The notes: generated by a model from the sequence alone, not told the origin. A DNA stretch of 41,651 bases from Escherichia coli (GCF_003334335.1 NZ_QOWQ01000037.1); one strand, 5' to 3'. Counted from the stretch's first letter, positions 16,909-19,409 are shown. Translations and numbers: made by a program.

Positions 16909-17919
16909 ATGAAGGCTGCAGTTGTTACGAAGGATCATCATGTTGACGTTACGTATAAAACACTGCGCTCACTGAAACATGGCGAAGCCCTGCTGAAAAT
17001 GGAGTGTTGTGGTGTATGTCATACCGATCTTCATGTTAAGAATGGCGATTTTGGTGACAAAACCGGCGTAATTCTGGGCCATGAAGGCATCGGTGTGGTG
17101 GCAGAAGTGGGTCCAGGTGTCACCTCATTAAAACCAGGCGATCGTGCCAGCGTGGCGTGGTTCTACGAAGGATGCGGTCATTGCGAATACTGTAACAGTG
17201 GTAACGAAACGCTCTGCCGTTCAGTTAAAAATGCCGGATACAGCGTTGATGGCGGGATGGCGGAAGAGTGCATCGTGGTCGCCGATTACGCGGTAAAAGT
17301 GCCAGATGGTCTGGACTCGGCGGCGGCCAGCAGCATTACCTGTGCGGGAGTCACCACCTACAAAGCCGTTAAGCTGTCAAAAATTCGTCCAGGGCAGTGG
17401 ATTGCTATCTACGGTCTTGGCGGTCTGGGTAACCTCGCCCTGCAATACGCGAAGAATGTCTTTAACGCCAAAGTGATCGCCATTGATGTCAATGATGAGC
17501 AGTTAAAACTGGCAACCGAAATGGGCGCAGATTTAGCGATTAACTCACACACCGAAGACGCCGCCAAAATTGTGCAGGAGAAAACTGGTGGCGCTCACGC
17601 TGCGGTGGTAACAGCGGTAGCTAAAGCTGCGTTTAACTCGGCAGTTGATGCTGTCCGTGCAGGCGGTCGTGTTGTGGCTGTCGGTCTACCGCCGGAGTCT
17701 ATGAGCCTGGATATCCCACGTCTTGTGCTGGATGGTATTGAAGTGGTCGGTTCGCTGGTCGGCACGCGCCAGGATTTAACTGAAGCCTTCCAGTTTGCCG
17801 CCGAAGGTAAAGTGGTGCCGAAAGTCGCCCTGCGTCCGTTAGCGGACATCAACACCATCTTTACTGAGATGGAAGAAGGCAAAATCCGTGGCCGCATGGT
17901 GATTGATTTCCGTCACTAA
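16909..17919 (+). CDS. adhP: Zn-dependent alcohol dehydrogenase (propanol-preferring)
   Basis: Product begins [14 protein letters not shown] at the ATG at 16909, after an aaaggagga RBS (336 aa); CGVCHTD and GHEGxG motifs. Confidence 0.9.
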
Positions 17920-18064
17920 GAGGCCTTTGCTGCGACTGCCATGTTCGGGTCGCAGCATCGCACACTCTCCAACATGAAATGGCTAAATGGATTATTGTTG
18001 CGTAGGAAGGAACAATAATGATAGTGTTCCCAGTGAAGGAACGCTACTGAGAGTAAAGACACTA

Positions 18065-18349
18065 ATGAAAATGGCCAATCATCCCCGCCCGGGGGACATT
18101 ATTCAGGAATCACTGGACGAACTTAATGTCAGCCTGCGCGAGTTTGCCAGAGCAATGGAAATTGCTCCCTCAACGGCAAGCCGATTGCTGACAGGAAAAG
18201 CAGCTTTGACGCCAGAAATGGCGATTAAACTTTCCGTGGTGATCGGCAGTTCGCCGCAAATGTGGCTGAATCTGCAAAACGCCTGGAGTCTGGCAGAGGC
18301 AGAAAAAACAGTGGATGTGTCGCGATTACGCCGTCTGGTTACGCAATAA
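18065..18349 (+). CDS. yddM: HigA/XRE-family helix-turn-helix protein (orphan antitoxin-like)
   Basis: HTH segment [34 protein letters not shown]; the start at 18065 (MKMANH, 94 aa) is chosen over the ORF-track start at 17987. No toxin-sized partner ORF fits between adhP and this gene. Confidence 0.7.
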
Positions 18350-18735
18350 AAAAATGGCACTTTATAAAGCGCCATTTAGAACTGATGACAAACGCAACAT
18401 TGCCTGATGCGCTACGCTTATCAGGCCTACACGTTCACTGCAATCTATTGGATTTGAAGGGTTTTCATGCCGGATAAGGCGTTCACGCCGCATCCGGCAT
18501 GAACAAAGCCTACGTTGTCTACAATATGAAAATGACGCCTTTTACAGCGCCATTTGAAACTGATGACAAACGCAACATTGCCTGATGCGCTACGCTTATC
18601 AGGCCTACACGTTCACTGCAATCTATTGGATTTGAAGGGTTTTCATGCCGGATAAGGCGTTCACGCCGCATCCGGCATGAACAAAGCCTACGTTGTCTAC
18701 AATATGAAAATGGCGCCTTTTACAGCGCCATTTTC
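18350..18735. repeat. Tandem duplication (2 x ~178 bp) of a BIME unit, each with two REP palindromes and a terminator-like hairpin
   Basis: REP 'gcctgatgcgctacgcttatcaggcctac' at about 18402 and 18580; REP 'gccggataaggcgttcacgccgcatccggc' at about 18469 and 18647; the units are near-identical by eye. Flanking hairpins aaaatggcgcc-ttttacag-cgccatttt sit between convergent yddM and fdnI. Confidence 0.9.
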
Positions 18736-18755
18736 AGCTTAAAGTTCAAAAGAGA

Positions 18756-19409
18756 TTATATCCCTTCTTCACTCTCTTTTTTCGCTTCTGCCTTCTCGAT
18801 TTCACGATACCAGCGCGGATGGTGTTTCTTCGCCCAGCGACGACTTACCTTCCCTTCGATCATCCCTTTAATCGATCCTTTCACCCAAAATGCCATATAC
18901 ATATGGATCAGGATGGCGTGGATCAGGATGATACCCGCAGCCGCGTGGATCAGCAGGCTGTAGCGAACAACCTGCATCGGGAAGTACTGCGCAAAGTACG
19001 GACGCCAGATAATCACCCCGGTCACCAGCAGCACGAAAATCATGCTCATGATCGACCAGAACATCATCTTTTGCCCGGCGTTGTACTTACCGACATCCGC
19101 CACTTTATGCTCATTGCCTTTCAATACTTCGACAATGTTCAACAGCCACGGAATATCTTTCTTATCCGGGATGTTGTGATGCACAAAACGCACAAACATA
19201 AACATCAGTGCGACGAAAATCGCAATGCCGAAGAACGGGTGCAAAATGCGTCCCATCTGCGGCGTACCGAAGGTTTGCGTCAGCCATTGCAGCGTCGGGA
19301 AGAAGAACGAAATCCCGGACAGCGCCACCAGGAAGAAGCAAATCACCACGGTCCAGTGACAGGCGCGATCAATAAATTTGGTGCGCACAATCATTTTCGA
19401 CTTACTCAT
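18756..19409 (-). CDS. fdnI: Formate dehydrogenase-N gamma subunit (cytochrome b556)
   Basis: ORF track starts at 19451; the recognised product begins [19 protein letters not shown] at 19409 (217 aa); multi-pass membrane protein; 8-bp overlap with the fdnH stop. Confidence 0.9.

Follow-up and report, generated by a model that had tools for sequence, protein, structure and literature searches.

The intergenic region between the convergent genes yddM and fdnI of Escherichia coli holds a tandem repeat built from BIME-1, a bacterial interspersed mosaic element (BIME) that carries two repetitive extragenic palindromes (REPs). The region was analysed within a stretch of 41,651 nucleotides (GCF_003334335.1, NZ_QOWQ01000037.1), referred to here as the window, in which the repeat extends from 18351 to 18733. 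The block consists of two BIME-1 elements alternating with three copies of the locus's own terminator stem-loop (hairpins Ha, Hb, and Hc, in the order Ha, BIME-1, Hb, BIME-1, Hc), and comparison with other genomes indicates that the stem-loop was probably duplicated when the element inserted and that the array was then amplified by exchange.

Architecture of the repeat block

The window is 100% identical to K-12 genomes and lies in reversed orientation with respect to MG1655, a position in NC_000913.3 being equal to 1570747 minus the window position. The flanking genes were expected to converge, and the annotation places yddM on the + strand and fdnI on the - strand (Table 1). The stop codon of yddM (TAA, 18347-18349) lies within the A-run that precedes Ha, and the distance between Hc and the stop codon of fdnI is 22 nt. 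Tandem Repeats Finder returns a repeat at 18360-18733 with a period of 178, 2.1 copies, 97% matches, no indels, and a score of 711; a separate repeat search aligns 18344-18521 with 18522-18699 at 95% identity and finds a partial third copy, the first 34 nt, at 18700-18733. The near-identical head-to-tail copies of about 178 bp described in the initial annotation are therefore borne out by self-alignment (period 178, 95-97% identity), and the limits first given for the block, 18350-18735, were right to within a few bases. An assembly artefact was considered and ruled out by the occurrence of the two-unit allele in hundreds of independent complete genomes.

Every part that had been named at the outset, that is a Y REP, a spacer, a Z REP of the opposite type, and a palindrome, was located. 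The Y REP (GCCTGATGCGCTACGCTTATCAGGCCTAC) has exactly two matches in the window, one per unit, where none is expected by chance. It is followed by an L linker of 38 nt, which includes CTGCAATCTATTGGATTTG, and by a Z REP (GCCGGATAAGGCG...CATCCGGCA) whose assignment to Z1, not Z2, comes from its context (L linker, A and B motifs), without a separate sequence test. The left flank of each element is (A/G)(G/A)AACTGATGACAAACGCAACATT and the right flank is TGAACAAAGCCTACGTTGTCTACAATATG. These outer motifs (AGAACTGATGACAAACGCAACATT and GAACAAAGCCTACGTTGTCTACAATATG) fit the consensus TGAGACTGATGACAAACGCAAAATT / GAACAAAGCGCACTTTGTCAGCAATC(TG) of a survey of 120 loci described below, and we take the family flanks to be the published A and B motifs (Gilson 1991). 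The layout is also that of the 120 loci themselves, which were retrieved by the pattern TCAGGCCTAC-N30-45-GCCGGATAAGGCG, and over 140 nt the element is 86% identical to the BIME-1 between aspC and gloC. Because the Y REP, the L linker, and the Z REP are accompanied by flanks conserved as family motifs, the element is, to judge by its sequence, a complete BIME-1 (RIP/RIB) with A and B end motifs.

In published descriptions BIME-1 comprises Y and Z1 with a long L linker, measures about 140 bp, and occurs in single copies, extragenically, at the 3′ ends of transcription units. The present element shares with BIME-1/RIP/RIB the inverted Y and Z1, the L linker, the A and B motifs, a length of about 140-150 bp, the location at extragenic 3′ ends, and the presence or absence among isolates. 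It differs in being tandem, with two copies in K-12 and from 0 to 4 in the species, whereas published accounts give BIME-1 as a single-copy element, “either present or absent”; moreover, its repeat unit takes in the duplicated local terminator hairpin, and its core for the binding of integration host factor (IHF) is one mismatch worse. Arrays formed by BIME-2 or by BIMEs of atypical kind likewise consist of head-to-tail REP pairs of strain-variable copy number, but BIME-2 units contain BIME motifs only (Y, Z2, and S, s, l, or r linkers), whereas here Y, Z1, and L are spaced by locus-specific hairpins. The Y REP retains CTAC (GTAG on the other strand), while the GTAG beside Z1 has become TCAT in both K-12 units and is retained in the alleles of O157:H7, E69, and MS 198-1. 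Since both units carry TCAT and the other alleles GTAG, the duplication of the unit in K-12 postdates the loss of GTAG. The TCAT substitution also lengthens the Z1 palindrome to 19-nt arms (18463-18503 and 18641-18681).

As regards existing annotation, at least one REP pair of the yddM-fdnI region is already on record: EcoCyc has REP120 here (NC_000913.3 1552072-1552168), according to an entry in the supplement of bioRxiv 10.64898/2026.03.23.713779, and this is the REP pair of unit 2. The RefSeq record NC_000913.3 holds no REP features between yddM and fdnI, and the only Rfam matches, to the REP-derived families naRNA4 and ES036, are sub-threshold and say no more than “REP”. A promoter scan of 17800-19200 found none. 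Open reading frames (ORFs) of 43 and 50 aa on the - strand within the array are translations of the REPs and were treated as spurious.

Table 1. Features of the yddM-fdnI region in window coordinates; dG is the free energy of the RNA hairpin, given for the + and the - strand
Feature	Position	Strand	Description	RNA dG +/- (kcal/mol)	U-tract
yddM	18065..18349	+	HigA-family antitoxin/regulator; RefSeq annotation (NC_000913.3, other genomes) and ORF list		
Ha	18351..18377		AAAATGGCACTTTATAAAGCGCCATTT; left copy of duplicated terminator stem-loop, 27 nt	-10.2/-14.5	U7 on fdnI strand
BIME-1 copy 1	18378..18528	+	151 bp; motif matches and A/B consensus from 120 loci		
Hb	18529..18555		AAAATGACGCCTTTTACAGCGCCATTT; internal junction hairpin, 1 nt different from Hc; weakest stem	-6.4/-13.1	3-4 U
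BIME-1 copy 2	18556..18706	+	151 bp; REP pair is EcoCyc REP120		
A motif, copies 1 and 2	18378-18401; 18556-18579				
Y REP, copies 1 and 2	18402-18430; 18580-18608				
L linker, copies 1 and 2	18431-18468; 18609-18646				
Z1 REP, copies 1 and 2	18469-18499; 18647-18677				
B motif, copies 1 and 2	18500-18528; 18678-18706				
Hc	18707..18733		AAAATGGCGCCTTTTACAGCGCCATTT, then T at 18734; right copy; perfect 12-bp stem; original downstream context TTTTCAGCTT	-18.7/-20.8	4 U on both strands
Empty-allele hairpin			Single hairpin of alleles without BIME-1	-16.2/-17.3	U7 on fdnI strand, U4 on yddM strand
fdnI	18756..19409	-	Formate dehydrogenase-N gamma subunit; convergent with yddM; RefSeq and ORF list		
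rut peak	18616..18902	+ (yddM-sense)	Genome 1551845-1552131, - strand; entry in the supplement of bioRxiv 10.64898/2026.03.23.713779		

Between unit 1 and unit 2 there are nine differences, seven of them in the hairpin (Ha versus Hb) and two at 18378-18379, and the 151-bp BIME-1 cores are identical at 149 of 151 positions. The hairpins differ from one another in their properties: Hc alone has a perfect stem, and a long U-tract is confined to Ha, on the fdnI strand. The palindrome aaaatggcgcc...ggcgccatttt occupies 18705-18736 and its 12-nt arms are 100% complementary. A terminator scan makes a single canonical call in the block, Ha on the fdnI (-) strand (U7), and every other context has 3-4 U, so that a U-rich tract is not found on both strands. 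The terminator is asymmetric, since in the empty allele, too, its tract is U7 on the fdnI strand but only U4 on the yddM strand. The palindrome had been taken as a part of the repeat unit and as a bidirectional terminator. Its stable stem is terminator-like, as proposed, but it does not belong to the BIME family and does not have U-rich tracts on both strands. The possibility that the hairpin is a part of the mobile element itself was rejected, as it differs completely between loci and matches the single hairpin of each empty site. The sequence CAATA before Hb and Hc was also considered as duplicated target and rejected, being the end of the B motif (consensus ...CAACAATC); since it belongs to that motif, the duplicated target is 27 nt and not 34.

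Occupied and empty sites

The counts that follow come from short diagnostic queries run against 5426 complete E. coli genomes, among which K-12 laboratory strains are over-represented. The empty site, with one hairpin, is present in 2273 of the 5426 genomes (diagnostic 51-mer), and about 2987 have at least one unit (at least 80% coverage of a 1101-nt query). One unit is found in about 2000 and at least two, recognised by the internal junction at Hb, in about 943, with at most three internal junctions per genome; the figure of 943 corresponds to 1267 high-coverage matches to the internal junction minus 324 O157-like Ha variants (93.5% identity). A query for the B flank counts 3485 units in 2504 genomes, at most four per genome. 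The retrieved sequences show 0, 1, 2, and 4 units; four are present in 1916D6 and YPE10, where the intergenic region reaches 762 bp, and in YPE12 by the B-flank count only. With head-to-tail units and a polymorphic copy number the locus behaves as a variable-number tandem repeat, and the earlier proposal that it expands and contracts is confirmed by the retrieved sequences and by the counts.

The comparison of these alleles is the basis for the proposed insertion. In the empty alleles of OkiPb01700 and AR_0013 the intergenic region measures 50 bp and contains a single perfect hairpin (CAATAAAAAAATGGCGCTTCTTAAAGCGCCATTTTCAGC), whereas one-unit alleles read hairpin, BIME-1, hairpin, the two hairpin copies of O157:H7 being identical at 27/27 positions. 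The occupied allele thus equals the empty allele plus BIME-1 plus one extra hairpin, and therefore the element sits between the stem and the T-tract. The junctions of the arrays are chimeric. Hb is the body of Hc with the A motif directly after it, a GGCGCC (Hc-type) stem is found at the third junction of four-unit arrays, and the Ha of O157:H7 is the A-run of the yddM side fused to an Hc-type body. As sequences, these junction hairpins fit unequal exchange or slippage within the hairpin repeats.

The same relation between occupied and empty sites is found at two further loci. Between the convergent genes aspC and gloC, a locus found via its left flank, the occupied site consists of AGCCCGCTGAAAAGCGGGCT / GAG-BIME-1-...AATCCAG / GCCCGCATTAAAAGCGGGCT / TTTTTT, while the empty site of O157:H7 and UTI89 has AGCCCGCTGAAAAGCGGGCT followed by TTTTTT only; 2811 of the 5426 genomes are occupied. 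For yfcC-yfcD the empty site was predicted by removing BIME-1 and one hairpin from the sequence of the divergent strain SCPM-O-B-8794. The predicted 116-mer has one contiguous match in 5384/5426 genomes, K-12 included (AAGAGCCGCAATTGCGGCTCTTTTTT), and only the divergent source strain was found to carry the element. The uvrB-yvcK locus (L104) was kept outside the comparison of occupied and empty sites, its source strain being too divergent.

BIME-1 loci were surveyed more widely in one representative genome per species with the pattern given above. The 120 loci retrieved come from E. albertii, Pseudocitrobacter, divergent E. coli, a cryptic Escherichia clade, Citrobacter, Kosakonia, and others. 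Flanks were compared at loci with recognisable A and B motifs, arrays being left out, by matching the 45 nt to the left of A with the 45 nt to the right of B. Of 37 elements compared, 25 have a flanking direct repeat; once orthologues are removed this becomes 22 of 34 independent full-length loci in other Enterobacteriaceae, against about 4% in controls with mismatched flanks, in which the left of one locus was paired with the right of another. The repeats have a mean length of 20 nt (12-39) and a mean dG of -11 kcal/mol. At most of the surveyed loci the left repeat abuts the A motif (gap 0) and the right repeat begins 2 nt after B; the left one is preceded by A-rich and the right one followed by T-rich sequence, and the hairpin sequences are unrelated from locus to locus. 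Because the same pattern recurs at many loci with unrelated hairpins, the duplication appears to be made locally and to be a general property of BIME-1 sites.

It could be supposed that the outer hairpins are independent terminators that are merely alike and that the one-hairpin alleles are deletions between them, as convergent genes often have separate terminators and deletion between short direct repeats is common. This is very improbable in view of the complete identity of the O157:H7 copies, of the recurrence in 22/34 loci of a hairpin-element-hairpin order with exact junctions and differing locus-specific hairpins, of the near-universal single hairpin at yfcC-yfcD with the element confined to the divergent source strain, and of an empty-allele hairpin that is not a chimera of Ha and Hc.

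Tandem arrangements are not confined to yddM-fdnI. Escherichia sp. MOD1-EC7003 (L124) carries another array of BIME-1 plus a local hairpin of 28 nt, with a period of 182 and at least four copies. Other tandem BIME arrays were seen in E. albertii and MOD1-EC7003 (L018, L120, L124, L128), some of them spaced by local hairpins or by what is left of such hairpins (L124, period 182; L120, period 160-168) and others without A motif or hairpin (the second array of L124, period 130; L128, period 124-128). Elsewhere in the window, at 35786-35866, there is a different REP pair, a degenerate Y-like REP and a Z REP with a short linker of 16 nt, BIME-2-like in layout and without A/B motifs or a flanking hairpin repeat. 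In strain 779 (L013, ~225-1500) the aspC-gloC BIME-1 is split by an IS621 of the IS110 family that lies inside its Y REP. At yddM-fdnI itself, APEC E12049 (L006, ~651-1360) carries an empty allele in which an IS200C copy separates the stop codon of yddM from the one terminator hairpin, and the terminator is therefore also the target of an element of the IS200/IS605 family. Exact BIME-1 matches on contigs of 261-3920 bp labelled Desulfosporosinus, Collinsella MAG (metagenome-assembled genome), Alkalicoccobacillus, Methylobacterium, and Micromonospora (L039, L112-L116, L118, L119) look like Escherichia contamination of the assemblies.

Proposed mode of insertion and relation to known elements

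In the explanation favoured here the hairpin repeat would be a target-site duplication (TSD) whose length is set by the hairpin and not by a fixed stagger. The two strands may be cut at the opposite feet of an extruded hairpin or cruciform, after which the element would be joined in. Copy number would then change by unequal crossing-over or replication slippage, at first between the 27-nt hairpins and subsequently between whole modules. [quoted passage not shown] The broader proposal that BIME-1 is a MITE-like mobile element with structure-directed integration at intrinsic-terminator stem-loops, the hairpin being duplicated as a variable-length TSD, is put forward tentatively, and we hold it to be rather less probable than not.

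Several points weigh against the insertion and duplication of the hairpin. The evidence is comparative throughout, both insertion and copy-number change being read from aligned sequences, and the direction of the event, insertion or deletion, is deduced from three loci and from the locus-specific nature of the hairpins. At 12 of the 34 BIME-1 loci no flanking repeat was detectable, and some further loci have an A-side hairpin only, or two diverged copies. The hairpin of the empty yddM-fdnI allele is 3 nt away from Ha and likewise 3 nt from Hc, so that the empty allele of today does not represent the exact target; as this hairpin is also no chimera of the two, the empty alleles would represent an old lineage and not recent excisions. 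Finally, Y1 transposases of the IS200/IS605 type, including the REP-associated tyrosine transposases (RAYT/TnpA-REP), make no target duplication (PMC3333891), and a variable duplication of 12-39 nt is unlike their chemistry.

The last point bears equally on the rival role of these enzymes. RAYT/TnpA-REP is the usual candidate for REP mobility, and the spread of REPs and BIMEs is described as unknown (Ton-Hoang 2012, PMC3333891). The enzyme might have made the tandem copies by cleavage, priming, and strand transfer instead of homologous unequal exchange, and Ton-Hoang et al. 2012 (PMC3333891) reported cleavage and recombination of BIMEs in vitro and proposed models of local amplification. The elements at issue do resemble REPIN/RAYT and IS200/IS605 elements in their two inverted REP hairpins, non-autonomous nature, GTAG/CTAC tags, and hairpin-rich extragenic sites. 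However, insertion in those systems leaves no target duplication, whereas a whole hairpin is duplicated at BIME-1 loci, namely at the three loci with occupied and empty sites and at 22 of 34 surveyed. The repeat unit holds 27 nt of locus-specific sequence that is not BIME, the junctions are chimeric and lie inside the hairpin, whereas RAYT models put them at REP/linker cleavage sites, the conserved GTAG by Z1 is lost in both K-12 units (TCAT), and BIME-1, unlike BIME-2, is described as single-copy. RAYT amplification is accordingly judged quite unlikely, and insertion with duplication of the hairpin followed by exchange is preferred.

Other mobile elements offer partial parallels. MITEs such as ERIC/IRU and Correia are small and non-autonomous, with imperfect terminal inverted repeats and flanking direct repeats, but they have a short TSD of fixed length set by the transposase, whereas the duplication at BIME-1 loci is of 12-39 nt, is not of fixed length, and follows the target hairpin. 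We know of no cognate transposase of BIME-1. Class C (IIC) group II introns are reported to insert just after intrinsic terminator stem-loops (Robart et al. 2007). They are comparable in target choice only, that is in insertion at the 3′ foot of the stem-loop, before the T-tract; they are retroelements that encode a reverse transcriptase and do not duplicate the hairpin. Di Nocera et al. 2013 (PMC3733652) described REPs inside small palindromes in Thermomicrobium and Halothiobacillus. Those REP dimers are similar in having a specific palindromic target; in that case, however, a repeated consensus palindrome is split by the REP, whereas here unrelated locus-specific terminators are duplicated intact.

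The presence of REPs within target palindromes in these two distant species (PMC3733652) is the nearest published statement, and the BIME-1 family and its presence/absence polymorphism are already known. A literature search that covered work other than the founding pre-2000 BIME papers found no description of hairpin-spaced BIME-1 arrays or of a systematic duplication of terminator hairpins; fdnI and yddM are mentioned together in a single paper, whose subject is not the yddM-fdnI repeat but a large amplification of the maeA region. The flanking repeats may have been noted in the pre-2000 BIME literature, and in that event what remains would be a well-documented case of ordinary BIME polymorphism. 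The signature of element plus one extra local terminator hairpin constrains the mechanism of BIME-1 insertion in a testable way. Structure-directed insertion, if true, would be an undescribed signature of REPs and BIMEs and would explain their location at the 3′ ends of operons, and the duplication of the hairpin would supply the direct repeats that allow tandem BIME-1 arrays such as that of K-12.

Transcription across the array and neighbouring genes

A textbook intergenic region of K-12 is therefore a copy-number-variable array, with consequences for the possible overlap of the fdnGHI and yddM transcripts. Each convergent transcript would first meet a hairpin whose U-tract has been cut to 3-4 U, and would reach the one that keeps its original tract only after crossing the array. 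Leakage at the proximal hairpins would let the 3′ untranslated regions pass through the REP stem-loops, with an overlap of at most about 390 nt. The fdnGHI operon is expressed anaerobically and hence not under the aerobic conditions of the Term-seq data used here. In those data (three aerobic conditions, LB and M63) no curated 3′ end lies at genome positions 1551900-1552499 (Adams et al. 2021), and reads in duplicated units may be dropped as multi-mapping by some 3′-end pipelines.

On the yddM-sense strand the signals are those of Rho. The rut peak (Table 1) starts in the L linker of unit 2 and reaches into antisense fdnI. An entry of supplementary file 2 of Adams et al. 2021 gives an in vivo Rho termination region at genome position 1551885 (window 18862), yddM-sense and inside antisense fdnI, and the tabulated data of bioRxiv 10.64898/2026.03.23.713779 list a bicyclomycin-sensitive region at 1551402-1552035 together with the rut peak against REP120. 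Because a rut site and bicyclomycin-sensitive regions are found there, termination in the yddM direction depends at least in part on Rho and lies in unit 2 or beyond it. The link of BIMEs to Rho-dependent attenuation (Espeli 2001, as reported in a paper citing it) agrees with this for the yddM direction. In the yddM direction these Rho signals point to 3′ ends outside the block, which tells against the reading of the initial annotation in that direction. No support was found for the idea that the array modulates mRNA stability or termination.

Binding of IHF and gyrase had also been suggested. The IHF core WATCAANNNNTTR has no match with at most one mismatch in 18340-18740, and the best IHF-like site by eye (ATCCAATAGATTG, - strand), present in both linkers, has two mismatches, one more than the canonical L. 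The affinity of gyrase is lower for BIME-1 than for BIME-2 (PMC1475751). Binding of either protein at the yddM-fdnI array is thus possible from its sequence but unsupported.

These data also bear on whether the array is a selected module, in which a reinforced bidirectional terminator, an mRNA stabiliser, and an IHF- or gyrase-bound insulator would separate fdnGHI from adhP-yddM with a tuned copy number. REPs that lie between convergent genes are reported to go together with bidirectional terminators and with raised expression of the two genes (bioRxiv 10.64898/2026.03.23.713779), the L linkers of BIME-1 are described as commonly holding an IHF site, and Hc is very stable. Against this, the array is dispensable, since 42% of genomes lack any unit and keep one hairpin only, and the hairpin that each transcript meets first has its U-tract shortened by the insertion. 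The mismatches of the IHF core in both units and the lower gyrase affinity of BIME-1 argue in the same direction, as do the lack of mapped 3′ ends in the block in the three aerobic conditions and the Rho termination beyond it on the yddM strand. A selected module is unlikely. Most likely the array is selfish DNA, nearly neutral, that acts on 3′ ends as a side effect and is no dedicated device.

Some observations concern the neighbouring genes. A strong Term-seq 3′ end (Adams et al. 2021) maps at window position ~18095 (NC_000913.3 1552652, - strand), about 30 nt into the yddM ORF and after the hairpin CCCCGCCCGGGGG, and points to early termination or to processing at the beginning of yddM. In B2-type strains a gene for a toxin of the RelE/ParE family lies immediately upstream of yddM and overlaps its start (L004 and L005, 28-306). 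In K-12 only a 145-bp gap separates adhP from yddM (window 17920-18349), and yddM would therefore be an orphan antitoxin there. The longest open frame of fdnG (20299-22710, -) has 803 aa, compared with 3048 nt (1015 aa) in RefSeq; the break presumably reflects the known in-frame UGA selenocysteine codon.

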